Of a stretch of DNA of 64,000 nt, positions 1-15,115 are shown piece after piece; the first letter of the stretch is position 1; each line of letters begins with the position of its first letter. The DNA comes from Candidatus Bathyarchaeota archaeon (lineage in GTDB: Archaea; Thermoproteota; Bathyarchaeia; Bathyarchaeales; Bathycorpusculaceae). Where the stretch lies: positions 352,001 through 416,000 of the forward strand of contig CAVTBV010000012.1 in assembly GCA_963733095.1 (NCBI GenBank). The letters run 5' to 3'. Both the position numbers and the translations under genes were made by a program. The notes beneath the pieces were generated by a model. It ran no database searches. It had not been told where the DNA came from and saw only the letters and a program-made list of their open reading frames with translations.

Positions 1-737
1 AGAACGTTCTTGACGAAATGGAGTGGTTAAGAGATGAGTACGGTGCGGAAGGCATAGCTTTCCAAGATGACACATTAACTTTTAACAGGGCAAGGGCAAT
101 TGAAATCTGCGACGGCATGATAGAGAGAAAAATGAAGCTGCCATGGGGCTGCGGAACCAGAGCAGACGCAGTTACCAAAGAACTCGTTGCAAAGATGAGT
201 AAAGCGCATTGCGATGAAATGATGTTTGGTGTAGAGTCAGGTTGCCAGAGGATGCGCGATGTGCTGAAAAAGAAAGTTACAAACGCACAGTGCGAAAACG
301 CCATTAAATGGACCAAAGAAGCAGGAATCTTCGTAACGGTATCAGTCATTTTGGGATATCCAGGTGAAACCAAAGAGACTCTGCAGGAAAGCCTGGATTT
401 TGTCCGCCGAGTAGAGCCTGACGATGTATGGCTTTGCCACGCGACACCTTTCCCCGGAACTGAACTTCGCGAGTTAGTGAAGAGCTGCGGGTGGAAGATG
501 TCGGAGAACTGGGAACTCTACAACACAATGAACCCCATCTTTGAAGACCCATCATTCCCAGCTAAAGACATCGCAGAAATCAGAAAGAACTTCTACAACA
601 AATTCTACAGCTCAAAATATGTTATGCGGCAAGCTGTGAAAGGCTATTTGAAAGGCAACTTGTACAGCAAAATAATGACCAGAACAGGAGCTAACTACAT
701 GCTCTGGCGAGCAATGGCCCGCCTTAAACTAATGTAA
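1..737 (+). CDS. B12-binding-class radical SAM protein, C-terminal part (5' truncated by window edge)
   Basis: FQDDTLT, WGCGTRAD, FGVESG, LGYPGET and ATPFPGT motifs. Paralog of 38410..39792. Confidence 0.85.
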   Translation, partial: NVLDEMEWLRDEYGAEGIAFQDDTLTFNRARAIEICDGMIERKMKLPWGCGTRADAVTKELVAKMSKAHCDEMMFGVESGCQRMRDVLKKKVTNAQCENAIKWTKEAGIFVTVSVILGYPGETKETLQESLDFVRRVEPDDVWLCHATPFPGTELRELVKSCGWKMSENWELYNTMNPIFEDPSFPAKDIAEIRKNFYNKFYSSKYVMRQAVKGYLKGNLYSKIMTRTGANYMLWRAMARLKLM

Positions 738-855
738 ACGGTAAAAAATGAGTTTCACAGATTTTTAAAGCAAGATAACCCGGAATTTTCTGCTAACCTT
801 GCGTTTAGAAAACAAATAAAAAAAAGGAAAAGTTGGTTTTTTCCCTTACGTGGGT

Positions 856-3504
856 TTAAGGTCTTTTTCGTTGCATCAGTATTGAAACAGCGCCGACTAT
901 GATGATTACGACGATAATTGCGATTGCTGAGCCCAGAACGTATGAGTCAGTCATTGATGTAGAAGGAGGTGTAGGTGTAGTGGTTGCAGCTGGCGCGTTC
1001 ATTACATAGAAAGCGGTTTGTGAGGATGATCCCCAGTAACCATTGTTGCCGTTGAAAGAAGCGATAACTGTGTAATTCCCAGCGATGTCAGGTGTCCAGG
1101 CAAGACTGTATAGTCCGCTTGAAGTAGTTGTTGTTGTGCCTATGTTCCGGGAGTTTCCATTAGAGTCCACGACATCTATTGACACTGGAACGCCTGTGAA
1201 GTTGGTGGGCATTGGTTGCTGTTGATAGACATAGCTCATCCATTGGCTTGTGCTTGCGTCAGATGCAGCTGGAACGCCATTTGGGAAGTCAGCTGCTTGC
1301 TGGTTTTGTTTTGTTCCTGCCGAAATGTCAATCACTGTACCCTGTATGAACACGGTATTTCCTTGTGGGATAACGTTGTTTTGGACTGAAACAGTTGTGT
1401 CTGTCGGACCTCGTCCAACGCAGTATATTTGGTTGTCGTATTGATTATAGAATGTTGCATCTCCGTCAGCGATAGCTATGGGTTGCATTGAGGTGCCTAA
1501 TCCTGAGGCAGACCAAGATGAGAGTGTCCAGATTTCTTGTCCAGTGGTAGCGTTGAGCACGCGCATCTGGTTGCCGTAGTATAGTGGTGTGTTTGGTGAG
1601 TGTTCGCCTGCATAGGTGAATACCATTCCGTCGGCAAATGCTGTGAGGTGGATTGGATAAAGTCCCCATGGTGTGTCTGCGCCGCTGTTTGTGGTGTTTC
1701 CTTCTCCGCCGTTACCGTAAGTCCATAGAAGAGTGCCATTTAGCATCGAATAGGAATAGACTATACCGCCGTACCCTGCTACGTAGTAATTGCCGTAAGC
1801 TGGCAGTCCTTCTCTGGAACTGTAGTATTGGAATCCTGTTTGAGCAATTGTACTTGGACCCCAAACTAGGTCTCCGGTTGCAAGGCTGTAAGCAAGTCGC
1901 TGGCCAGTTTCTTGGTATGTCATGGCAAACTCGTTTGTAACTGGATCTATTGGTTGCGTTGGTAACATTTCGGTGAGGTTTCCTGGTGGTGCTGGGTAAT
2001 TCTTAATCCATAGTAGATTGCCTTCTGAGCCTGGTGCATCGCTTAGAGCCCACATTGTCCATGGGTTTGAGTTCGGGTTAGATTCTGCAATGAGCGCAAT
2101 GTTGCTGCTAGTGCCTAATATTGTCTGCCCAGGGATGATACCGACGATGTGTGGAGGTGCTAGGTTAAGTGTAGTAATTGCTGAGGGGTAACTTCCATCC
2201 AAGTTTGATGAGATTGTCACGTTGTATGAATATGCATAGCTTTTGCTTGCATCGATAGAGAACCCTGAACCAACTGGCACGAAGTCTATACCTGGAGCAG
2301 GCGCTCCGGGTGCACCATTGTCTGGAGCTGTGATTGCTGCAGTATCATTCCATAAAGCTAACCAGCCACTTTGAGCATTGACGTCATAGTTGAATACGTA
2401 TATCAATATGTCACCTGCGTTGTCATAAACTTGAGTGCCGCGAGGAACGTTCGTCAAATTAAATAGGAACTGCTGAGTGAATGCGTTATAAGCCATCCAT
2501 GTAGAGCCAGAAACCTGCCAAAGTATCGCTCCGGGGATTCCGTGCTGGTTGGGTATTTGTATGTCAGCGATTTGTGCCATGCTTGGATAGAGAGTTGTAC
2601 TTGACCACAATGTTTGGCCAGTCGTCAAATCTACCGCCATCTCTGGTCCACCTGATCCGGCCTCCCCATTGGGTTCTCGGTAGTAAAGTACACCTTGTAG
2701 AATTATTGGATTGTTAAACCTAACATTGTATGACATTCCCTGATAATAAGTAGCTAAGTCATCAGTTGCTTCAGCTGTATCGCCAGGTTGACTTACAGTT
2801 CCGCCTGCTAAGCCACCAAACTCGAGCGGTTTTGTCCATAGTATGTGTGCACTTGTGGGTGCCACACCGTTTGCTTGAATATAGTTAGATTCTGCAGCTC
2901 CGCCTAGCCAGTTTGATCCAACAGCATACATGCCTTGGTTTTGTCCGTATATTGGTCTAGTCCAGTATGCAGTGGGTAGTGCAGAGTTAACATTTGTCGG
3001 TATTGGCTGTTCCTGCACGGTAAAAGTCATGGATGCATTGCTGGGCAGATAGATGTCACCGTTAGTTGCGGGCAACCCTACCTGGAGTGCTACTGGACCT
3101 GGACCATTGTATACTTGTCCGCCGTAGCTGAAAGATACTGTATAGGTTCCAACTTGGTCAGGAGTGAAGGCAAAGTATTGTGATGATGTTGTATCACTAA
3201 CTGTTGGGAATGACTGCGTTACTTTCGTTCCGTCGGGTTGTGTTATAATAAAGGTGTAGTTTTCAGCTCTGATGTTATTTTCAAGAAGTGCTCCTGATAT
3301 TACTTGATTAATCCAGCCGAATATGAGCATTTGTTGACCAACACCAACTGGGTTGGGTGAAGCAGCGACAAACGCGTATGTGGTGATTTGCCAGGGTGGT
3401 GTATGTGCGGTGGCGTTGGGTAATAGTGTCATCGAAGCCGCCATTGATATTGTGAGAAGAATCGCAATAGTGATAGTTGCTGTTTTGTTTAAAGCAATTT
3501 TCAT
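856..3504 (-). CDS. Secreted PQQ-like beta-propeller surface protein with Ig-like ends and C-terminal TM anchor (paralog 1)
   Basis: Signal peptide ending AHTPPW, repeated TG-x-x-LW blades, C-terminal WTPDIAGNYTVIASF, Thr/Pro linker, TM helix and basic tail. GGAGA SD upstream. Confidence 0.85.
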   Translation of the reverse strand: MKIALNKTATITIAILLTISMAASMTLLPNATAHTPPWQITTYAFVAASPNPVGVGQQMLIFGWINQVISGALLENNIRAENYTFIITQPDGTKVTQSFPTVSDTTSSQYFAFTPDQVGTYTVSFSYGGQVYNGPGPVALQVGLPATNGDIYLPSNASMTFTVQEQPIPTNVNSALPTAYWTRPIYGQNQGMYAVGSNWLGGAAESNYIQANGVAPTSAHILWTKPLEFGGLAGGTVSQPGDTAEATDDLATYYQGMSYNVRFNNPIILQGVLYYREPNGEAGSGGPEMAVDLTTGQTLWSSTTLYPSMAQIADIQIPNQHGIPGAILWQVSGSTWMAYNAFTQQFLFNLTNVPRGTQVYDNAGDILIYVFNYDVNAQSGWLALWNDTAAITAPDNGAPGAPAPGIDFVPVGSGFSIDASKSYAYSYNVTISSNLDGSYPSAITTLNLAPPHIVGIIPGQTILGTSSNIALIAESNPNSNPWTMWALSDAPGSEGNLLWIKNYPAPPGNLTEMLPTQPIDPVTNEFAMTYQETGQRLAYSLATGDLVWGPSTIAQTGFQYYSSREGLPAYGNYYVAGYGGIVYSYSMLNGTLLWTYGNGGEGNTTNSGADTPWGLYPIHLTAFADGMVFTYAGEHSPNTPLYYGNQMRVLNATTGQEIWTLSSWSASGLGTSMQPIAIADGDATFYNQYDNQIYCVGRGPTDTTVSVQNNVIPQGNTVFIQGTVIDISAGTKQNQQAADFPNGVPAASDASTSQWMSYVYQQQPMPTNFTGVPVSIDVVDSNGNSRNIGTTTTTSSGLYSLAWTPDIAGNYTVIASFNGNNGYWGSSSQTAFYVMNAPAATTTPTPPSTSMTDSYVLGSAIAIIVVIIIVGAVSILMQRKRP

Positions 3505-3658
3505 AATTTTTTCTCCTTTTATTGATACTTGTGTTAAACTATAACGCTGTTATAGTGAATAATATAAACTTTACTTTGATTTTCTTTTTTCAGCACTATT
3601 AGAACTTAGAGCAGTAGTTTAGTGTGCGTTTGTGAGCGTTAGGCGTTGGTTTAAGTAT

Positions 3659-3674
3659 TTGTCACAAGTGGTAC
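3659..3674. promoter_or_regulatory. Candidate operator TTGTNACAA(GTGGTAC) next to a TATA-like box
   Basis: Palindrome TTGTCACAA. The same motif recurs at 6707 and 9629 upstream of paralogs 2 and 3. Confidence 0.55.
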
Positions 3675-3727
3675 CTCAGACAGATTTGCCAAAAATGAAA
3701 TTGGTTTTCAATTCAAGAAAGGTTAAA

Positions 3728-3832
3728 GGTTTGCTGAGGCTCTGGAACGAATTGGAGAAGAGCGAAATGCAAAACGCTCCTCACGAAACTATGGTCAAGT
3801 ATCGTGAATTTTAACCAGAGCCTACTCAGCCC
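3728..3832 (-). ncRNA. BHB-closed structured RNA, copy 1
   Basis: Minus strand GG-GCUG-AGU-AGGCUCUGG...CCAGAGCCU-CAGC-AAA-CC. Internal hairpins are UCACGA/UCGUGA and GAGCG-UUUUGCAUUU-CGCUC. Confidence 0.65.
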
Positions 3833-3855
3833 GCATTTTTTCCAGTACTTTAGAG

Positions 3856-3872
3856 ACTAAAAAAGGGGAAAG
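3856..3872 (-). terminator. Pyrimidine/oligo-U terminator of paralog 2
   Basis: Minus strand CTTTCCCCTTTTTTAGT, about 30 nt after the stop. Identical 17-mer at 6937-6953. Confidence 0.55.
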
Positions 3873-3902
3873 ATTGTTTTTGTTTGTTTTTTGTTCGATT
3901 AC

Positions 3903-6647
3903 TTATGGTCGCTTTCGCAGCATCATCATAATCAATGCGCCGATTATAACCAGCACAACGATAATCGCTGCAATACCGATCGCAAAGTCAGTAGTCGTAG
4001 CATAGTTGCCTGTCGATGATGCAGGAGCCGAAGTCGAAGCCACCACGTCACTAGCATAGAAATGAGTCTGAGCCGAAGAACCATAGTAGCCACCTGAACC
4101 AGCAAACGTCGCAATCAAAGTATAATCACCCGCAATATCAGGAGTCCAAGTAAAACCGTACGCACCCGAAGCATCAGTAGTAGTAGAACCAATAGATCGA
4201 TAGTTACCATTAGAGTCAACAACACTAAGAGTAACAGAAACACCGACCTCGTTGTGCGGATCCGGCTGCTGCATATACACCGTCTCCATAAACGCGCTCA
4301 TACTAGCATCAGAAACCACCGGCAACCCATTGGGATAGTTCGCTGCAACCGCTTCTTGCCTTGCACCCGCAGAAACATCCGTCACAGTACCCGTAATAGT
4401 AATCGGAGTAGCAGTAGAAACGCCTACCTGAGGAGCACTAACAGTAGTAGCACTCGGACCCTGCCCATAAGCGTAGATCTGGTTGTCATAAGCATTCAAA
4501 TTCGTCATAATACCATACGCAAGCTCCGGATTGCTGTTGACATTAAACGAATCAATCGCCCACACAAGATCACCAGTCGTACAGTTAATCGCCAATTGCT
4601 GAGAACCGATGAACAGAGGAGGCGAATACTCATGTCCCTCACCAAGGAACATCAATCCACCACCACCGCCGATGCCAGTCTGCACCCAAATAGGCCAAAC
4701 ACCATACGGTGTATTACCGCCAGCTTCACCAGTAATCTTTGTAGTGTTCGTGTACCAGTTAACAGAGCCATCCGCCATCGACAAAGACCAGATGTCGCCG
4801 CCAAAGCCAAAGATATAGAAGTTCCCACCGTAGATGTTGCCCTTAATGCCGCCCACAGTATCATAAGCATTTATATCCGCACCATTATCGCCCTTAAGAG
4901 TCGTTTGCCAAACTAGATTGCCTGTAGTGACACTGAAAGCAGAAACCTCACCAGTCTCTTTGATGATGGTTGTGAAAACTCCATCGGCAACGTTGCCATA
5001 GTTGTCTAAGTTAACTGCAGTGTAAGGCGTAAAAGCGATCTCCTTAACGAATAGCTGTTGTCCAGTGTTTATGTCAAAGCCAGTAAACCAGTCAGAGCCT
5101 GTTTGGAAGTAGTTTGTAAGCCCTGCGTTATTTAGCGAGTAAAGAATTGCGACACCGCTGTTAACGCCCATAATTGTCCAACTTGTCGGTTGACCCGTAG
5201 GTAGCTGATAAGCAGCCATTATTCCGTATTTGTAGTCGATAACGGCGTTTTGTGTAGGTCTCCAATTCCAGCCTGAACCCGATGTAGATGGCCAGCCCAC
5301 GCCAAGCATAATGGCCTGTGTCGAATTCCAAACCTCAAGCAAACCGTTGCCCGCAGTGTTGGTAACTTTTGTGGGTTCTGGTCCGATGACTGGTTGAATT
5401 TGTCCGTAGATCGTTTGTGTGCCGACAGTAGTGTTTGTGTAGTATTGAATAAGGTTGCCAGATGCATCCACAGTATTTCCATACGAAAAGCCCGTACCGT
5501 TAACAATGCTAAGAATATACTTACCAGTCATAGCATCAAACATGTTTAGGCTAGTTCCGCGCGAGTATATTCCGTCAAGGGTTCCTTGAGTCCATAGGTA
5601 TGCAACTCCGCCGTATTGGTTGGGTGACACATAATCAAGCACTTGGCCACATTCCAGAGGTGTAACTTGACCATTTGATGTGAGAGCAGTTTGCGCTGGT
5701 GAACCTCCACCATAGTTGGTTGAGTCGTCGACCCATATTGTTTGTCCAGTGTATAAGTCAACGCAGACGTTGGCAGTAGGGTTAGCTGAGCTGCCTGGGA
5801 TTTGAGTGTAGTAGAGGTAGCCGTTGATGACAATCGGATTATACTTCCGTTCGTACTGAGCAGTCGAATAATAGTTGCCGTAAGTCGTCGTTCCGCCTGC
5901 ATCACCGCCGATGACACCGCCAAAAGTAATGGGCCTTGTCCAAATGATGTGAGACGTAAGCGGCGCAGTAGAGTAGGGATTGAAGTTTGTGGTTGTGTTG
6001 TAGTTGGAGGCGCCTTTACCTGCGCTGTAGCCGATGTAGAGGCCAAGATAAGGACCGCCGATAGCGTACCAGTTGTAAACGTTCATCGCATTGATCGGAG
6101 TCTGCCAATAACTAGTTGGAAGCGGAGTACCCGGAATAGACGGCACAGGTTCTTGCTGAACAGTTAAAGTTGCAACATCGCTTATAGCTGGTAGAATAGT
6201 GTCGTTGATGTAGCTTGGGTTGCTAATGCCAGTCAAGCCGTATTGACCACCGTTTAATGTCTGTCCTGGATAAGTCATCTGGAATTGGTATTCACCCAAT
6301 TGGTCAGGTGTATAGTGTGTGCTTGTTCCACCAGTATCATCAGATGTGAATGGACCCAATGTCTCGTTTGTTCCATCAGGCTTAATGACATGAACCGTGA
6401 ATGGACCAAACCTGTCACCATAGATAGTGCCAGCAGTCATTGGCGGTGCATTTAGCCAAAAGCCAACAGTAACAGTCTGACCCAGCCCAGCAGGATTAGG
6501 TGCAACATTAACGAACGCAAACAGTTGAATGTCAAACGGTGGAGTATGTGCATTAGTGTTTGGCAGTAGAGCCATTGAAGCTCCCAAAGAAATTATCAAA
6601 AGTGCTGCAATCGAAATAGCTGTAGTTTTACTTTTTAGATTAAACAT
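3903..6647 (-). CDS. Secreted PQQ-like beta-propeller surface protein (paralog 2)
   Basis: Same architecture as paralog 1. Start moved to MFNLK (6647), which follows a GGAGA SD. Confidence 0.85.
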   Translation of the reverse strand: MFNLKSKTTAISIAALLIISLGASMALLPNTNAHTPPFDIQLFAFVNVAPNPAGLGQTVTVGFWLNAPPMTAGTIYGDRFGPFTVHVIKPDGTNETLGPFTSDDTGGTSTHYTPDQLGEYQFQMTYPGQTLNGGQYGLTGISNPSYINDTILPAISDVATLTVQQEPVPSIPGTPLPTSYWQTPINAMNVYNWYAIGGPYLGLYIGYSAGKGASNYNTTTNFNPYSTAPLTSHIIWTRPITFGGVIGGDAGGTTTYGNYYSTAQYERKYNPIVINGYLYYTQIPGSSANPTANVCVDLYTGQTIWVDDSTNYGGGSPAQTALTSNGQVTPLECGQVLDYVSPNQYGGVAYLWTQGTLDGIYSRGTSLNMFDAMTGKYILSIVNGTGFSYGNTVDASGNLIQYYTNTTVGTQTIYGQIQPVIGPEPTKVTNTAGNGLLEVWNSTQAIMLGVGWPSTSGSGWNWRPTQNAVIDYKYGIMAAYQLPTGQPTSWTIMGVNSGVAILYSLNNAGLTNYFQTGSDWFTGFDINTGQQLFVKEIAFTPYTAVNLDNYGNVADGVFTTIIKETGEVSAFSVTTGNLVWQTTLKGDNGADINAYDTVGGIKGNIYGGNFYIFGFGGDIWSLSMADGSVNWYTNTTKITGEAGGNTPYGVWPIWVQTGIGGGGGLMFLGEGHEYSPPLFIGSQQLAINCTTGDLVWAIDSFNVNSNPELAYGIMTNLNAYDNQIYAYGQGPSATTVSAPQVGVSTATPITITGTVTDVSAGARQEAVAANYPNGLPVVSDASMSAFMETVYMQQPDPHNEVGVSVTLSVVDSNGNYRSIGSTTTDASGAYGFTWTPDIAGDYTLIATFAGSGGYYGSSAQTHFYASDVVASTSAPASSTGNYATTTDFAIGIAAIIVVLVIIGALIMMMLRKRP

Positions 6648-6706
6648 TTTTTTCTTTTCTCCTTTATTCTGTAACTTACTCCATGGGTTCAAACTCTGTT
6701 AAGCGT

Positions 6707-6722
6707 TTGTAACAAGTGGTCC
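6707..6722. promoter_or_regulatory. Candidate operator TTGTAACAAGTGGTCC
   Basis: Conserved palindrome immediately upstream (minus sense) of a TTAA TATA-like box of paralog 2. Confidence 0.55.
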
Positions 6723-6789
6723 TTCTGAAAAATTTCTTGATAGATTTTACTCCAAAAATTAAAGCGAGAAAAGTTTGATAACAAAAGTA

Positions 6790-6909
6790 GGCGGCACGTT
6801 TGCTGAGGCTCTTGGTGGGTGATTAAGGAGAGAAAAAGAGAATGCAAACTCTTTCTTCACGACTATAGCTATTTCGTGAATTTAATCCGAGCGTTCTCAG
6901 CCCTCCGCC
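6790..6909 (-). ncRNA. BHB-closed structured RNA, copy 2
   Basis: Minus strand GGCGG-AGG-GCUG-AGA-ACGCUC...GAGCCU-CAGC-AAA-CGU-G-CCGCC. Stems are GAUUAA/UUAAUC, UUCACGA/UCGUGAA and AAAGAG-UUUGCAUU-CUCUUU. Confidence 0.65.
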
Positions 6910-6936
6910 AGATCTACAACTTTTTTGCCTATGCAA

Positions 6937-6953
6937 ACTAAAAAAGGGGAAAG
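6937..6953 (-). terminator. Pyrimidine/oligo-U terminator of paralog 3
   Basis: Identical to 3856-3872, about 25 nt after the stop. Confidence 0.55.
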
Positions 6954-6977
6954 TGGATTTTGAGTCATATCTTTACA

Positions 6978-9567
6978 CTATGGTTTTTTCCTAAGCAGTA
7001 GTACGCCAACGATGGCTATTGCAATGATTATAGCGGTTACTCCGGCAGCCATGTACATCATAAGATCATTAGTTGTCGCTAAACCCAACATCGTGTCTGC
7101 GGACGCAGCTGTTGATGATGATGCTACTGGATCAACTGCGAAAGCGGCTTCTGAATAAGACGAATAGTAAGACTCAGAGCCTGGGAATGTTGCGATAACT
7201 GTGTATTTGCCTTCAATATCGGGAGTCCACTGGAAGCTAAATGTGCCGGTGGCATCACTCGTGGCTGTACCGATGTTGCGATAGTTGCCGTTTGAATCAA
7301 TTACATCGATTGAAACTGGAACCCCAGTTGTGTTGCTGGGACGTGGCTGCTGCATGTAAACGTACTCCATAAAGGCTTGTTGGCTTGCTTCAGAAACACA
7401 TGGAAGACCGTTTGGGAAGCGCGCAGCTGATACTTCTTGTGATGCACCTGCAGAGATATCCATAACTGTGCCAGCGATAACTATCGAACTGCCTAAATTA
7501 ATTGCCGCTTGAGGCGCAGTGACTTTTGTAACGGTTGGTCCTTTGCCCCATGCGTATAGCTGGTTGTCGTAAGCATTCAGCGTTGTCATGATGCCGTCTG
7601 AGATGGCTGGTGCGCTTGTAACGTCAAAAGCAGTTATGCTCCAAACAACAGAGCCGTCGGTGAGATTTAGCGCCATCTGTTGTGCGTGGTGGAATAAGGG
7701 TGGGCTATACATGTGGCCTACAGGAACAAACAGCTTGCCGTCTGCAACTGTTCCTACACTGAAAGTCCAAAACGGCCACGTACCATAAGGAGACTCATAA
7801 CCACTTGATGGCGCGTGATATTCCCAGTTAAAAGTCCCAGTTGCCATGTCGATAGAATAAGCATCTCCTCCATAAGTCCATGTTAGCAATGTGCCGTTAG
7901 GACCTGGACAGTAACGTTGGCCAAGTGAAGTGAAAGGATTAACGTTCGGCATTGGTTTTGGTCCCCAGATCTTGTCTCCCGTGGTAAGGCTGTAGCCTGT
8001 TGCTGTTAATGCGGCAGAATCAAATTCGACCCAAACGCCGTACCCCATAGTTTCAGCGCCGAAAAGAACCCTGGAATTTTCAACTTCTGTATGGTTCTTT
8101 GGGCCCCAAAGTAGGTGTCCGTCGACTGCACTGTAGCCTGCTACAACATACCATCCGCCTTGGAAGTAGGCAGATTGACCACTTGCATACGATAGAAGTA
8201 CTACGCCGCCGTTGATTCCGTTAAGGCTCAAAGATATAGGATTGCCGTCGATCTGTGTTGCGATTGGTGCGGACCATTCTATTCCATTTTGGAATGCGAT
8301 CACACCGTCTTGGGGAGGCCTCCATTGCCACCCGTTCGGGTCACCGTTACCGTTTACGCCTCGCATGATTGCCCTAGGTAGAGTTCCACACAGTGAGCGA
8401 TCGCTGACCCCCACTTGAATTAACATAGTAGCCTATCAAACCGCCGTAGTCATCAAGTTGAATCGAGTTCAAGCCAGTACCGTTGACAATGCTAAGGATA
8501 TATTTACCCGTCATAGCGTCATACATGCTGTAGGTTGTTCCAGTAGAAACAACTCCAGTTACCGAGCCTGTAGCCCACAGGTATGCTCGTGCGCCGTATT
8601 CGTTAGGTGTTAAATAATCCATTATTTGACCGCATTTTAGAATCGTCGTGTAGTCTTGTGTCCATATTGTCTCTCCAGTGTGCAAGTTAACTGCTGCCCA
8701 GCCTGCTGGATTAGCAGTAGAACCAGGATACATAGTGTAGTAGAGCATACCGTTCATGATTATTGGTGCGAACTTTGGCTGATATTGCGATGTTGACCAG
8801 AAGTTGCTTTGTTGATCACTGCCGAATTCTCCTCCGACTGTGCCGCCGAAAGCTATAGGCTTTGTCCACATGATGTGGGGACTGTTAGGCGCAGTTGTAT
8901 AGGGTGCATAGCTTCCTTGTGCATTGTACTGTCCTGTGTTTGCAAATGTCGACACTCCAAGACCAAGCCAGTTGCCGCCTATGGCGTACCATAAATCGTT
9001 GTTCTGGGCGTAGATTGGGCGAGTCCAGTATTCGGATGGAAGCGGAATTACAGGTGCATAGCTTATTGGTTCTTGCTGAACGGGCAGGGTAAATAAGTTG
9101 CTCTTGCTAGGTTCATAATAGTCGCCTACGAACGGGTTAGTCGATGGTAGTCCATTAGCTGTATTTAACCCTAATAATGTGTTGCCGCCAAAGACCATCT
9201 GGAAAGTGTAATTGCCAACTGATGTAGGTGTGTAGGTGGTGTGTGATCCTCCCGTGTCATCGGATGAGAATGGACCTAGTGTTTCAGTGGTTCCGTCTGG
9301 ATGTGTCACTACAACAGTCATGTCTGTCCATCTGTCACCAGAGGCCATAGCTGCTGTTGGTGGCGGTACTTGAAGCCAGAAATTGACGTTAACCTGTTGA
9401 CCAACACCTATAGGAGAAGGCGCAATATTTATGAAACAGTAGGTTGGAAGTGACCATGATGGATCATGTGCACTAGCGCTTGGCAGTAATGTTATTGAAG
9501 CTCCCATTGAAACTGTCAGGATTGCTGCAATCAAAATAGCCACAGTTTTATTTTTTATTTTCAGCAT
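6978..9567 (-). pseudogene. PQQ-like beta-propeller surface protein (paralog 3), split by a 1-nt frameshift at about 8376
   Basis: ORF 8374..9567 ends WNST* and ORF 6978..8426 continues RAIMRG. Paralog 2 reads WNSTQAIMLG. Removing one base from ACC-T-AGG restores the frame. Confidence 0.8.
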
Positions 9568-9628
9568 TTTTTATTTTTCCTTTTTCTTCTGTAATTATAG
9601 TATTGGTCTTTAGTTTGTTTAAAAAACG

Positions 9629-9644
9629 TTGTAACAAGTTGTAC
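9629..9644. promoter_or_regulatory. Candidate operator TTGTAACAAGTTGTAC
   Basis: Third copy of the palindrome, adjacent to the TTTAAA box of paralog 3. Confidence 0.55.
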
Positions 9645-9715
9645 TTATGACAAACTTTCAATAAAATATTTTTTCATTAAATAAATAATTATGATAAAAA
9701 TAAATCATAAATAAT

Positions 9716-9824
9716 GCTTGTTGTTTGCTGGGGTTCCAGAATTGTGGAAGGAAAGAAAAATGCAAAAACGGGCTAAATCAATCAATTTATAGGAGAATCC
9801 CTTCTGGAACCCTTTCAGCCAAGC
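9716..9824 (-). ncRNA. BHB-closed structured RNA, copy 3
   Basis: Perfect BHB on the minus strand: UUG-GCUG-AAA-GGGUUCCAGAA...UUCUGGAACCC-CAGC-AAA-CAA. Contains UUUUUGCAUUUU. TATA-like TATATTAA at 9849-9842. Confidence 0.65.
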
Positions 9825-9949
9825 CCAAACTTCATTCCCCAATTAATATACCTCTCAAACTATTTTTAAAAATGTGTAATCAGTACGCCTTCAGACAAAA
9901 AATGCCTTGGTTTCAGGAAAAATTCTTAAATCATCTCGATAAAAGTTAA

Positions 9950-10741
9950 ATGAGAAAAATGACACAAACCGAAGAAGAATCGATTGAAATATTCACAAGT
10001 TTAGGACTTACATATGTGCAAGCAAAACTGTATTTAGCCATTGTCAGACTTGGGAGCATCGGCGGCGACGTTAAAAAAATTTCTCGCGAATCAAGTGTGG
10101 TTCGACAAGACATCTACAGAGTTTTACCCAGTCTACAAAAACTCGGATTAACCGAAAAAATAATCTCTAAACCAACAAGCTACAGGGCAATTCCCCTAGA
10201 AAAAGGATTTTCCACACTCCTAAACAAAAAAACCAGTGAATATTCTGATCTCAAGAAAAAGGCAAAGACAGTTTTTGACAAAGTTGCTTTATGCGCCACT
10301 AAAGGTGATGCTGATGAAGACCCGCAGTTTGTAATAACTTCAGAGAGAGAACTTTTCCTAAGAAAAGTCAAAGAAGACATTGAAGAAACAAAGTCCTGCA
10401 TCCGGGTGATATACTCAAAAGAAAGAATGAGCATAATTGCGTTTCACACAGGAGATCAACTTGAAAAAGCCATGGCAAGGGGTATTAAAATTCAGGCTCT
10501 CACAGACAAATCACAAGAGAATACACTGGACAGAAACATCCAAATGCTCAAGAAAAACCCAGCCTTTGAGCTCAGATTTGTCGAAGAGGTTACTGTCGGT
10601 TTAATAATTTTCGATTATAAAGAAGTTAACCTTCGTATGGCAAAAACCATAGTTCCGAGTCTATGGACAAATAACCGAAACGTTGCGAAACTAGCGGATA
10701 TGTATTTTGAGAATCTCTGGAAAAAAGCCCCAACAGAATAA
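9950..10741 (+). CDS. TrmB-family transcriptional regulator
   Basis: N-terminal LGLT..QAKLY wHTH with RQDIYRVL..LQKLGL..P..YRA. C-terminal effector domain ending LWTNN..YFENLW. Confidence 0.85.
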   Translation: MRKMTQTEEESIEIFTSLGLTYVQAKLYLAIVRLGSIGGDVKKISRESSVVRQDIYRVLPSLQKLGLTEKIISKPTSYRAIPLEKGFSTLLNKKTSEYSDLKKKAKTVFDKVALCATKGDADEDPQFVITSERELFLRKVKEDIEETKSCIRVIYSKERMSIIAFHTGDQLEKAMARGIKIQALTDKSQENTLDRNIQMLKKNPAFELRFVEEVTVGLIIFDYKEVNLRMAKTIVPSLWTNNRNVAKLADMYFENLWKKAPTE

Positions 10742-12284: not shown

Positions 12285-14903
12285 TTAGGCGTGTTTTTTA
12301 ACCGTTGACCAGACAACTATGGCTGCGAGGACGATGATTGCAACGATCATGACAACAGAGAGCGGTAGGAAGTATAGGTCTGCGTTCGATTGTGGTACTG
12401 CTGTGGTTGGCGCGGGAGTAATGTCTGGTGCTGCCATTACGTTGAATGCAGTTTCGGATGATGATTGCCAATAAGAGTTCGAGCCTGCGAATGTAGCGAT
12501 TACTGTGTAGGTTCCTGGGACGTCTGGAGTGTATGCTTTTGCGAACATTCCGTTTGCGTCGGTTGTGGTGGTTCCGATGACGAAAGAGTTACCGTTCGGG
12601 TCGATGGTTGTTAAGGTCACTGTTACGCCTGTTACGTTTGTTGGGCATGGTCCTTGTTGGTAGACGTATTGCATCCATCCAGTCTGACTTGCGTCTGAGA
12701 CTGCTGGAACGCCATTTGGAAAGTCTGCTGCTTGTTGTTTTTGTGTTGTGCCGGCTGAAATGTCCATTACTGAGCCCTGTATGAGTACGTTGTTTCCTTG
12801 TGGAATGACGTTGGTTTGGATGTTGACGTTGGTGTTGCTTGGTCCTTTGCCTACGACGTATACTTGTCCGTCATATGCGTTAGCGAATGCCATGTAGCCG
12901 TCAGCGATAGCGATGGGTGCCATGGATGTGCCAAGTCCTGAAGCTGACCAATCTGGAAGTGCCCAGAGTTCTTGTCCAGTGAAGGAGTCTATAGCGCGTG
13001 CCATGTATCCTCTGTATAATGGTGTGTTGGGGGAGTGCTCTCCTGACATTGTGTATACTATGCCGTCTGCAAATCCTGCAATGTGAGTTGGGTAATTGCC
13101 CCATGCAGTGTTGTCGCCGGTAGCTGTGCTGTTTGCACCTACACCGTTGCCGTAAGTCCACAGTAGGGTGCCGTTTGACATTGAGTAGCAGTAGACAACT
13201 CCGCCGTAGCCGCTAACGTAGAGGTTTCCGTATGCGGGCAAACCTTCGCGTGAGCTGTAGTATTGGAATCCGTTTTGAGCGCGGTCACTTGGACCCCAAA
13301 CTAGTTTTCCATCGGCGAGGCTGTAGGCGAGTCGTTGACCAGTTTCAAAGTATGTCATTGTCCATTCGCGTGTTACTGGATCGATTGGTTGTAAGGCTAA
13401 CATTTCGGTCTGGTTGTTTTCGGGTGCTGCGTATCTTTGAATCCATGAAAGTTGTCCTTGACTGCCGTCTTTGGCACTTAAAGCCCACATTGTCCATGGG
13501 TTGCTGTTTGGTCTAGGTGCTGAAGTTAAGCTAACACTACTGCTGCTGCCAAGTATTATATCGCCTGGGATGACGCCGACGATGCTTGGGTTTGCGGTGC
13601 CTGTTAAATCGTCTGTGATGGTGACGTTCCATGAGTAGGAAGCAGGTGTGCTTTCGTTAACGAATACACCTAAGTTGGAATTGATAGCAAATCCAGTGTT
13701 AGTTGGCCATGCGTATTGACCTGCAGCGACTGATCCAGAGTGTCCAGGATTGCTTGTTATAACTAGAGTTGAATTCCAAAGAGCTAACCAGCCTTGTTTT
13801 AGGTTAGTGTTGTAGCTGAATACGTATCGGTCGATTTCACCGTTGTTCAGGTAAACTTCAGTGCCTGAAGGAACGTTTGTAAGGTTGAATAGGAAAGTTC
13901 CGTCAAATGCGTTATAGCCCATCCATGTTGAGCCAGAAGTCTGCCATAGTATGCCTCCGACCATTCCGTGCTGGTTTGGTGACTGGAAATCAATCAGTTG
14001 TGCTTTTGAGGGGTTAAGTGTGCTGCTTGTCCAAAGTGTTTGTCCAGTTGTTAGGTCCACTGCATTAAGGACTCCGCCAGATCCAGCTTCGCTCAAAGGT
14101 GATTGGTAGTAGAGGATTCCGCTTAAGATCATTGGATTGTTGAATCGTGTGTTGTATGAGAAACCGGAGTAGAAAGTTGCCGCTGTATCGTTCACTTGAG
14201 CTGTGTTGCCAGCCTGAGTTACGACGCCACCGGTTAAACCGCCTAGTTCGAGGGGTTTGGTCCACAATACGTGTGCACTTCTTGGTGCTGCACCGTTTTG
14301 TTGCCAATAGTTAGCTGTAGCTGCTCCGCCAAGCCAGTTTGACCCGATAGAATCCCACAGAATGTTCATGCCGTTTATTGGTCGTGTCCAGAATGCGCTT
14401 GGAAGTGGATTTTCAGTGAATGTTGGCACTGGGTCTTGTTGCACTGTAAAGGTTGTTGTGAAATTGCTTGGTGTGTAGTAGTCACCTTGGTAGGCTCCGC
14501 CGAAGTCATATACTTGTCCTGGAAAGCTGAAAAACAGTGTGTATGTTCCAACTTGGTCGGGTGTGAAGGCATAATATTGTGATGATGTTGGGTCGCTAAC
14601 AACTGGAAAACTTTGGGTTACAACTGTTCCATCTGGTTTTGTGATAGTGAACTGGTAGTCGTGGAATCGAATGTTGTTGGTAAGATCTACACCGTTTATG
14701 GTGTTGTCAAGCCAACCGAAGATAAGCATCTGTTGACCTACACCAATTGGGTTAGGCGTAGCTGCAGCATATGCGTAGGTAGTGATTATCCATGCAGGCG
14801 TATGGGCACTAGCGTTTGGTATAAGTATCGTTGAAGCTCCTATAGAAATTGTTAAGAATACTGCAATCAAAATGGCCAAAGCTTTTGTTTTAAGATTTTG
14901 CAT
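12285..14903 (-). CDS. Secreted PQQ-like beta-propeller surface protein (paralog 4)
   Basis: Closest to paralog 1 (shared FQYYSSREGLPAYGN, GEHSPNTPLY, QQAADFPNGVPA). Signal peptide and TM anchor present. Confidence 0.85.
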   Translation of the reverse strand: MQNLKTKALAILIAVFLTISIGASTILIPNASAHTPAWIITTYAYAAATPNPIGVGQQMLIFGWLDNTINGVDLTNNIRFHDYQFTITKPDGTVVTQSFPVVSDPTSSQYYAFTPDQVGTYTLFFSFPGQVYDFGGAYQGDYYTPSNFTTTFTVQQDPVPTFTENPLPSAFWTRPINGMNILWDSIGSNWLGGAATANYWQQNGAAPRSAHVLWTKPLELGGLTGGVVTQAGNTAQVNDTAATFYSGFSYNTRFNNPMILSGILYYQSPLSEAGSGGVLNAVDLTTGQTLWTSSTLNPSKAQLIDFQSPNQHGMVGGILWQTSGSTWMGYNAFDGTFLFNLTNVPSGTEVYLNNGEIDRYVFSYNTNLKQGWLALWNSTLVITSNPGHSGSVAAGQYAWPTNTGFAINSNLGVFVNESTPASYSWNVTITDDLTGTANPSIVGVIPGDIILGSSSSVSLTSAPRPNSNPWTMWALSAKDGSQGQLSWIQRYAAPENNQTEMLALQPIDPVTREWTMTYFETGQRLAYSLADGKLVWGPSDRAQNGFQYYSSREGLPAYGNLYVSGYGGVVYCYSMSNGTLLWTYGNGVGANSTATGDNTAWGNYPTHIAGFADGIVYTMSGEHSPNTPLYRGYMARAIDSFTGQELWALPDWSASGLGTSMAPIAIADGYMAFANAYDGQVYVVGKGPSNTNVNIQTNVIPQGNNVLIQGSVMDISAGTTQKQQAADFPNGVPAVSDASQTGWMQYVYQQGPCPTNVTGVTVTLTTIDPNGNSFVIGTTTTDANGMFAKAYTPDVPGTYTVIATFAGSNSYWQSSSETAFNVMAAPDITPAPTTAVPQSNADLYFLPLSVVMIVAIIVLAAIVVWSTVKKHA

Positions 14904-15115
14904 TTAGTTCTCTCTCCTTAATTCGGTAGCAAGGCAAACAAGCAATAACCTTATAAGACTTATGGAAAACTTGTCTCTGATTACAAGTTAGAAGTTTAAA
15001 ATTAGAATTTTTGCATCGGTTTATTCCCAACTGGAATTTAAATGGGAACATAGGCACCCGGCTAATTTCTTCAACAAAATAATGCCCGACGCTAAAAAGA
15101 CAGCATAATTGAAAA

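Follow-up and report, generated by a model that had tools for sequence, protein, structure and literature searches.

In a 64,000-nucleotide (nt) stretch of the genome of a Candidatus Bathyarchaeota archaeon (GCA_963733095.1, contig CAVTBV010000012.1, positions 352,001 to 416,000; hereafter the window), three intergenic elements of about 100 nt, each closed by a motif of the bulge-helix-bulge (BHB) type, which is the substrate of the splicing endonuclease EndA, lie among large paralogous surface-protein genes. We propose, with a probability of roughly two in three, that they belong to a family of circular antisense RNAs made by EndA and the ligase RtcB, which pair in trans with the messenger RNAs (mRNAs) of surface-protein paralogs and repress their translation. 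This proposal builds directly on the geometry of the elements, on covariation, on their position, on complementarity specific to one gene family, on guides that match their targets lineage by lineage, and on a circle junction present in two contigs from related organisms. An earlier reading of the window from its letters (the sequence-only reading) had described the three elements as stand-alone introns yielding circular RNAs, but had missed that they are tied to the 3' end of the preceding paralog and that loops in their interior are antisense to the family's translation-start regions. The three elements it described are real, and the genome carries about 30 members of their family in all.

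A BHB frame held by compensatory change

The geometry was analysed on 91 curated copies: 27 from the window's own genome, 39 of the 44 plus-strand matches of one RNA-model search and 25 from loci in genomes of the class. Of the 91, 87 form their best inner helix with a 3-nt 5' bulge, and a 3-nt 3' bulge is best in 80; the 3' bulge reads AAA in 81 copies, the central helix is fully paired in 81, and 59 pass a strict BHB test. The first inner pair is A-U in 61 copies, G-C in 20 and G-U in 5, and a slipped register of the central helix is broken in 42, with 36 copies admitting only the BHB and 5 only the slip. The 3-4-3 BHB register is held by compensatory change across these copies, despite an energy-model result that we weigh below, and homologs thus keep the geometry that the sequence-only reading had taken as diagnostic. 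G-U pairs outnumber A-C mismatches by 55 to 29 on the host strand, an excess that points to an RNA made from that strand, and shuffle and slide controls on 23 own-genome copies, which are related to one another, agree with the BHB geometry. The sequence of the central helix is far more conserved than EndA requires. RNAalifold, run on a MAFFT alignment that is not structural, left the interior unpaired.

Processing machinery and a circle junction

The genome encodes two EndA subunits (PF01974; C3:94777 and C13:258056) and RtcB (C1:172184), all over cut-off; by eye, one subunit carries the Tyr, His and Lys motifs that we take to be the EndA catalytic triad, and the other lacks the His. Metagenome contigs were scanned, in the canonical register only, for the word expected from canonical cutting and ligation. 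Among 57 matches, 55 cover at most part of the 3' arm and two are full family members, Ga0257136_1003727 (L259, 2955 nt) and Ga0257144_1002231 (L260, 3017 nt), of which 305 or 325 bases were read. Both run from the end of a surface-type gene through a T tract and a 5' exon into a unit of 106 or 105 nt, and then into the start of the same unit again, whose first 42 or 62 nt reach the contig end. In each bulge the cut implied by the joint follows the second base, as is canonical for EndA, and the bases before the two cut sites differ, so that there is no microhomology at the joint. We interpret this as the pattern expected from assembly through a circular RNA, in records whose RNA origin is unstated; exact duplication of DNA at both cut sites in two different elements is an unlikely alternative. 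Gene end and element stand united in one contig in both cases, which does not by itself establish a single transcript. The junction word is absent from all 401 genomes of the order, 138 of which carry the linear element under a strict pattern whose reversed control gave zero, and from 219 otherwise retrieved loci, and the 8 matches of a viral-contig scan include no family member.

Three metatranscriptome contig sets from one study, with 6-9% of words, were mapped on window positions 700-10000. Their contigs come from relatives mostly <95% identical and cover the surface genes, with zero depth in bins 3499-3809 and 9719-10000, that is, in most of copies 1 and 3; the 15 of 18 RNA-contig joints listed include no backward joint, and these sets are uninformative. 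A search for TATA boxes before the elements returned scattered matches with a weak cluster at 25-29 nt, and no positional signal stands out. The view of the elements as EndA introns outside any transfer RNA (tRNA) or ribosomal RNA (rRNA) agrees with the conserved geometry, the EndA and RtcB genes, and the absence of any tRNA or Rfam match within the window. The predicted circles are borne out in part, by the exact junction in two contigs of related organisms, but no junction was observed for the three window copies themselves. As for known classes, a box C/D guide circle was rejected because the exact box C occurs in 1 of 91 circles and a box D word in 13, and a tRNA or rRNA intron or processing stem because neither search gave a match in the window.

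Family size, position and distribution

A profile search of the window's own genome (G000; G090, G098, G142 and the like denote related genomes, and L-numbers related loci) gave 35 element matches at E < 0.3, including two truncated copies and one collapsed copy, and a covariance model gave 33, counting three opposite-strand matches to the starts of surface genes. Because 24 of the 35 lie on the same strand 34-73 nt behind a surface gene or its remnant, we link the element to the preceding and not the following gene, which we call its host; two of the others lie behind broken remnants and nine, including window copy 3, are orphans. Counted by C-terminal ends, 24 of the 47 surface genes have a detected element behind them, and the same downstream placement recurs in G090 and G142. 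To describe the window elements as lying upstream of paralogs 1-3 was accordingly misleading, since copy 1 is better placed behind paralog 2 (by 68 nt) and copy 2 behind paralog 3 (by 73 nt), and copy 3 has no host. Between gene and element lies a pyrimidine or T tract, 21-53 nt from the helix in 66 of 67 tract-bearing copies; this variable spacing, together with tandem copies, fits transcriptional read-through better than a fixed promoter. Tandem pairs with differing interiors occur at L144:3109-3361, G038:C3:48600-48815, G121:C15:7272-7534, G032:C8:5029-5279 and G148:C1:4354-4627.

Across 151 genomes of the class, the RNA model matched 12 and the protein family occurs in 16; of the 12, 11 carry the protein family and the twelfth holds a single weak, unverified match. 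By title, the 77 related loci comprise 71 Bathyarchaeota, Bathyarchaeia or Bathycorpusculum, four 'uncultured archaeon', one 'Crenarchaeota' and one bacterial name. A contig titled Candidatus Acidoferrum (L067) carries a surface-gene homolog and a strong element, and is probably a mis-binned archaeal contig. The family has no match in Rfam at the gathering threshold, in line with the earlier statement that no known RNA family fits. The collapsed copy (G000:C2:138450-138508) keeps the outer arms and has lost the interior, behind a gene that carries common target codons; it looks like a deletion between short direct repeats and not like a splice product. Four divergent orphans with a 4-nt 5' bulge (G000:C7:50829, 70574, 80020 and 98525) lie away from surface genes, embedded in a 280-330-nt repeat of 84-96% identity. 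In a second cluster, at G000:C12:320398-335501, none of the four surface paralogs has an intact element, and one is among the top predicted targets of many elements.

The interior as a probable guide to paralog start regions

The excised unit contains three segments complementary to surface-gene mRNAs, directed at the Shine-Dalgarno (SD) sequence, the start codon and signal-peptide codons ~7-18. Most of the 12 circular folds examined leave these segments largely unpaired; in G090 the anti-start segment lies in a stem beneath the codon-matching loop. The RNA model alone recovers gene starts on the opposite strand, 8 of its 12 minus-strand matches falling at the start of the matched gene. Loops antisense to translation-start regions thus suggest the likely function. 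Targets were ranked by a custom alignment score over 2231 script-called gene starts, 39 of which belong to surface genes. Eleven of 27 own-genome elements place 6-14 surface-gene starts in their top 20, where dinucleotide shuffles (25 each, for the 8 elements tested) average 0.0-0.5, and window copy 2 is a clear guide with 8. By loose patterns that carry no shuffle control, 86 of the 91 circles contain an anti-SD-like word and 70 an anti-start word. Three other functions were tried and rejected: the host gene as a cis target (best rank 6 of 43 over 19 pairs), a cis preference for the gene next downstream (8 pairs, ranks 14-33 of 43), and a conserved peptide on either strand or a rolling-circle frame, for which lengths and frames scatter.

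Lineage-matched guides and a tendency to spare the host

Loops of G000 match T-M-A-I or T-A-I-S codons over 13-15 nt. G090 comes from a different family and has altered starts as well as altered guides: when set against the 15 starts retrieved, 9 of its 15 elements are perfect matches, over 12-20 nt, to the A-T-I-T-L codons of a single paralog, L148. G098 shows the same pattern with the L148 ortholog in 3 of 13 elements, and G142 guides match A-A-A codons over 11-12 nt. When the start sets of three genomes are compared, each set is paired best by the elements of its own genome. Guide and target co-vary at the level of the lineage, copies within a genome being related and not independent events. 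Between the G090 and G098 orthologs of the main target, synonymous sites are conserved at 7 of 9 positions in the target codons versus 237 of 335, and the flanks of guide-target pairs hold 14 G-U against 9 A-C.

The host is the best target in none of 46 pairs (0 of 19, 13, 9 and 5 in four genomes). Permutation gives P values of 0.021, 0.014, 0.20 and 0.33 for the four, and of 0.006 when combined, or 0.005-0.04 when one of the two congeneric genomes is dropped. L148 and L185 are heavily targeted, and the common guide is missing from the elements behind them. Self-sparing is a consistent but modest trend. Separately, orthologous surface genes about 80% identical (L148-L162 versus L185-L202, also L021 and L035) often differ in their N-termini, which suggests that 5' ends, comprising start region and signal peptide, are exchanged among paralogs.

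The window elements and their neighbourhood

All three elements lie on the minus strand, as do the surface genes around them. Copy 1 (3726..3835; covariance-model E 6e-19), 68 nt behind the stop of paralog 2, has a predicted circle of 94 nt (3824-3731). Its first loop (3788..3798) is an imperfect complement of the T-M-A signal-peptide codons of other paralogs, its second (3765..3774) is complementary to the start-codon region, and a single-stranded anti-SD segment (3754..3760) was identified by comparison with the 3' end of the genome's 16S rRNA. Copy 2 (6795..6906), 73 nt behind paralog 3 and mismatched in its flanks, has a predicted circle of 96 nt (6895-6800) with guide segments at 6863-6874, 6841-6848 and 6825-6835. 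Copy 3 (9720..9824), the orphan with no preceding host gene, has a predicted circle of 89 nt (9813-9725) with anti-start (9756-9768) and anti-SD (9746-9754) segments, and a clear codon guide is absent. Pyrimidine/T tracts occupy the intervals between paralog 2 and copy 1 (3857..3871), where the tract is terminator-like and would have to be read through, and between paralog 3 and copy 2 (6938..6952).

These sites and circles reproduce what had been read from the letters, as do the GCTG/CAGC central helix, the bulges AGT+AAA, AGA+AAA and AAA+AAA, the 2-bp (base-pair) outer helix of copy 1, the mismatches in both flanking helices of copy 2, the stem swaps around the UUUGCAUU loop and the restriction of the canonical BHB to the host strand. 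Copy 3 was called a perfect BHB; a 3-bp outer helix can indeed form there, but the outer pair probability is 0.01 when flanks are included. Minus-strand folding z-scores are -3.7, -2.2 and -2.0 for copies 1, 2 and 3, and the BHB inner-pair probability is 0.36 in copy 1 and 0.00 in copy 2, where the energy model favours a slipped 6-bp central helix slightly and strongly, respectively. The BHB register rests on the family and not on the three window folds.

The surface genes without an element behind them are paralog 1 (856..3504, 882 amino acids (aa)) and paralog 4 (12285..14903, 872 aa), whereas paralog 2 (3903..6647, 914 aa) is the host of copy 1 and paralog 3 (6978..9567) that of copy 2. Paralog 1 matches PQQ_2 above cut-off and Ig-like domains weakly and ends in a C-terminal hydrophobic anchor, a profile that neighbouring large proteins share. 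Codons at 6612-6624 of paralog 2 are matched perfectly over 13 nt by elements located elsewhere in the genome, four of which match at least 11 nt, but not by its own copy 1. Paralog 3 is matched at 9537-9549 by the element at C9:45275, and the start region of paralog 4 (about 14896-14924) is an RNA-model match on the opposite strand and a top predicted target. A one-base frameshift splits paralog 3 near 8377 in the assembly; contigs of relatives' RNA lack one base there in all three runs, so that the shift may be peculiar to the strain or an error of the assembly. The genome has several further split paralogs. A near-palindromic, operator-like word (repeat family D9) is conserved upstream of paralogs 1-3, at 3659-3669, 6707-6717 and 9629-9639, and a TrmB-family gene (9950-10741, plus strand) lies divergent from copy 3.

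Proposed mechanism and competing explanations

In the mechanism we propose, an element would be transcribed with its host gene by read-through of the T tract, EndA would cut the BHB, and RtcB would close a circle of 70-115 nt, the junction of which is seen in relatives. The circle would then pair in trans with mRNAs of paralogs and so block translation initiation, its codon-matching loop providing gene specificity and its anti-AUG and anti-SD segments occluding the ribosome. The read-through, the enzymes responsible, the pairing in vivo and the repressive outcome are the steps that we infer.

Several observations weigh against this mechanism. Cleavage, binding and repression are all predicted, and genes without elements have a similar T tract, so that read-through has to be presumed. 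Both junction contigs come from other organisms and possibly from one study, their records may be RNA or DNA, and the scan that found them admitted the canonical register only. The energy model prefers the BHB over the slip in just 35 of 91 precursors (mean 0.42 vs 0.37). Five of the 16 genomes with the protein family have no convincing element even on deeper search. Of the 27 own-genome elements, 7 show no preference for surface-gene starts, all gene starts having been picked by our own script. Copies 1 and 3 of the window guide weakly, with 1 and 2 surface-gene starts in their top 20, and for copy 3 that count lies within the shuffle range. Elements of G000 score better on G142 starts (-36.1) than on their own (-33.2). 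As to the sparing of the host, G090 and G098 belong to one genus, and a further 22 cross-genome pairs give P 0.054, with the host ranked first in 1 of 22.

It is unlikely, in our estimate, that the BHB instead serves the 3'-end processing or stability of the host mRNA, or that the linear 3' untranslated region (UTR) is the active antisense with the circle as a by-product. The fixed position behind the host gene would suit either, and splicing of the 5' UTR intron of HVO_1309 in Haloferax volcanii seems, in the account consulted, to be required for the expression of its gene (PMC7714728). Every guide segment, however, lies inside the excised unit, unpaired in most circular folds examined; guides match other paralogs better than the host; both junction contigs continue across the circle joint and not into the 3' exon; and orphan copies occur. 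Circles that do pair with paralog starts might alternatively stabilise or activate the mRNA, target it to the membrane or guide an unknown protein, outcomes that together we judge improbable. One of the guides is directed at codons ~7-18, beyond the footprint of an initiating ribosome, and a central helix over-conserved for EndA could mark a protein site. Repression, on the other hand, accords with the anti-SD-like and anti-start words of most circles (86 and 70 of 91, by the same loose patterns) and with the masking of a ribosome-binding site documented for the archaeal small RNA (sRNA) sRNA162 (PMC3510493), and an exact box C word occurs in 1 of 91 circles.

The elements might be a DNA-level feature, namely a relic of a gene's 5' end in inverted form, or a cassette of inversion or recombination, that duplication of gene 3' ends has spread. 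This would suit an interior that runs roughly co-linear with a start region's reverse complement, N-termini that differ among orthologs 80% identical overall in a way that suggests 5'-end swaps, and copies that are not independent within one genome. We nevertheless consider this very improbable, as no copy listed has a flipped interior, the G-U excess is confined to one strand, guides skip the variable codons between start and target and match non-host genes, and a relic would not yield a junction exactly at the EndA sites. A non-autonomous mobile element, of the kind of a miniature inverted-repeat transposable element, made harmless by BHB splicing seems barely plausible to us. The copies are many, with arms like terminal inverted repeats, nine orphans and a collapsed copy (C2:138450-138508), but in two families of genomes they keep a single fixed site behind a single gene family, the protein family is present in 11 of 12 model-positive genomes, with 1 weak unverified match among the 135 genomes without it, and the collapsed copy retains its outer arms, like a deletion. 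To the opposite strand as the product, whether a short SD-AUG decoy or a micro-peptide mRNA, we give almost no credence, even though SD, AUG and short frames can be read on the plus strand and copy 1 folds nearly as well there, given that peptide length and frame are unconserved (2-32 codons), the BHB is canonical on the host strand only, and the wobble asymmetry favours that strand.

Circular antisense repression might go further still. A possible, if doubtful, extension is an RNA-based selector of the cell surface, in which each expressed surface gene sheds a stable circle that silences rivals and spares its host, while a few dominant paralogs, or a single one, are the targets of many minor genes. 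If true, surface proteins would be expressed in a winner-take-all or mutually exclusive manner. This would be an archaeal counterpart to antigenic variation, one that needs no rearrangement of DNA and in which long-lived circles serve as memory.

Comparison with known systems

The repressive mechanism, if correct, would explain how an abundant soil and sediment archaeon handles about 47 paralogous surface genes, and, because exact cut sites and guide-target pairs are predicted, it can be tested in vitro without culturing the organism. With its fixed BHB frame and exchangeable guide loops, the scaffold could also be put to use for programmable knock-down in laboratory archaea. We found no description of the element family in the literature searched, although the supplements of PMC12558985 and PMC12918454, which that search did not cover, may list such circles; the Bathyarchaeia circles described in the consulted part of PMC12918454 are rRNA circles only.

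BHB introns outside tRNA and rRNA have precedents in the HVO_1309 5' UTR intron of H. volcanii and in the cbf5 mRNA intron, where a BHB-bounded unit within an mRNA transcript is likewise excised by EndA and recovered as a circle (PMC7714728). As presented there, those introns are single-copy, lie in a 5' UTR or coding region, and have no circle function shown (PMC7714728), whereas the window family has tens of copies 3' of genes and an interior antisense to other mRNAs. The circular signal recognition particle RNA of Thermoproteus tenax (PMC4731332) and the box C/D guide from the tRNA-Trp intron (PMC7714728, PMC12558985) demonstrate that the tRNA splicing machinery can yield a stable, functional circle; in the accounts consulted, both are housekeeping ribonucleoprotein components and not mRNA regulators, and the window family essentially lacks box C/D words.

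In its predicted targets the family recalls the FopS sRNAs of Bacteroides thetaiotaomicron, which are multi-copy, bind near the start codon of surface-transporter paralogs and repress translation (PMC11697453). Those, as described, are ordinary sRNAs, 1 of 14 being derived from a 3' UTR, with no splicing or circle mentioned in the text consulted and not one per gene of the target family (PMC11697453). Among archaeal RNAs, sRNA162 of Methanosarcina mazei is also a trans-acting antisense RNA that masks a ribosome-binding site, but it is linear and from a single locus, and BHB processing goes unmentioned in the consulted part of that study (PMC3510493). Release of a regulator from an mRNA 3' end is known from s-SodF and OppZ, the former supporting mutually exclusive expression of two enzymes; according to the same account both are linear, and OppZ depends on RNase E and Hfq and autoregulates (PMC9438474). 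The window family would differ from these in its EndA-type release, its circular form and its predicted many-to-many network of paralogs. The omega-RNAs of IS200/IS605 elements guide TnpB. Their archaeal circles resemble ours as small circular non-coding RNAs with guide potential, and differ in being transposon-linked, no BHB having been found in them as far as the consulted account goes (PMC12558985). In the literature consulted, part of it seen in excerpt, the known EndA products outside tRNA and rRNA are thus a few single cases and include no mRNA regulator; multi-copy, spliced, circular antisense RNAs would, if confirmed, represent a novel class of regulator in prokaryotes and give EndA and RtcB a new role.

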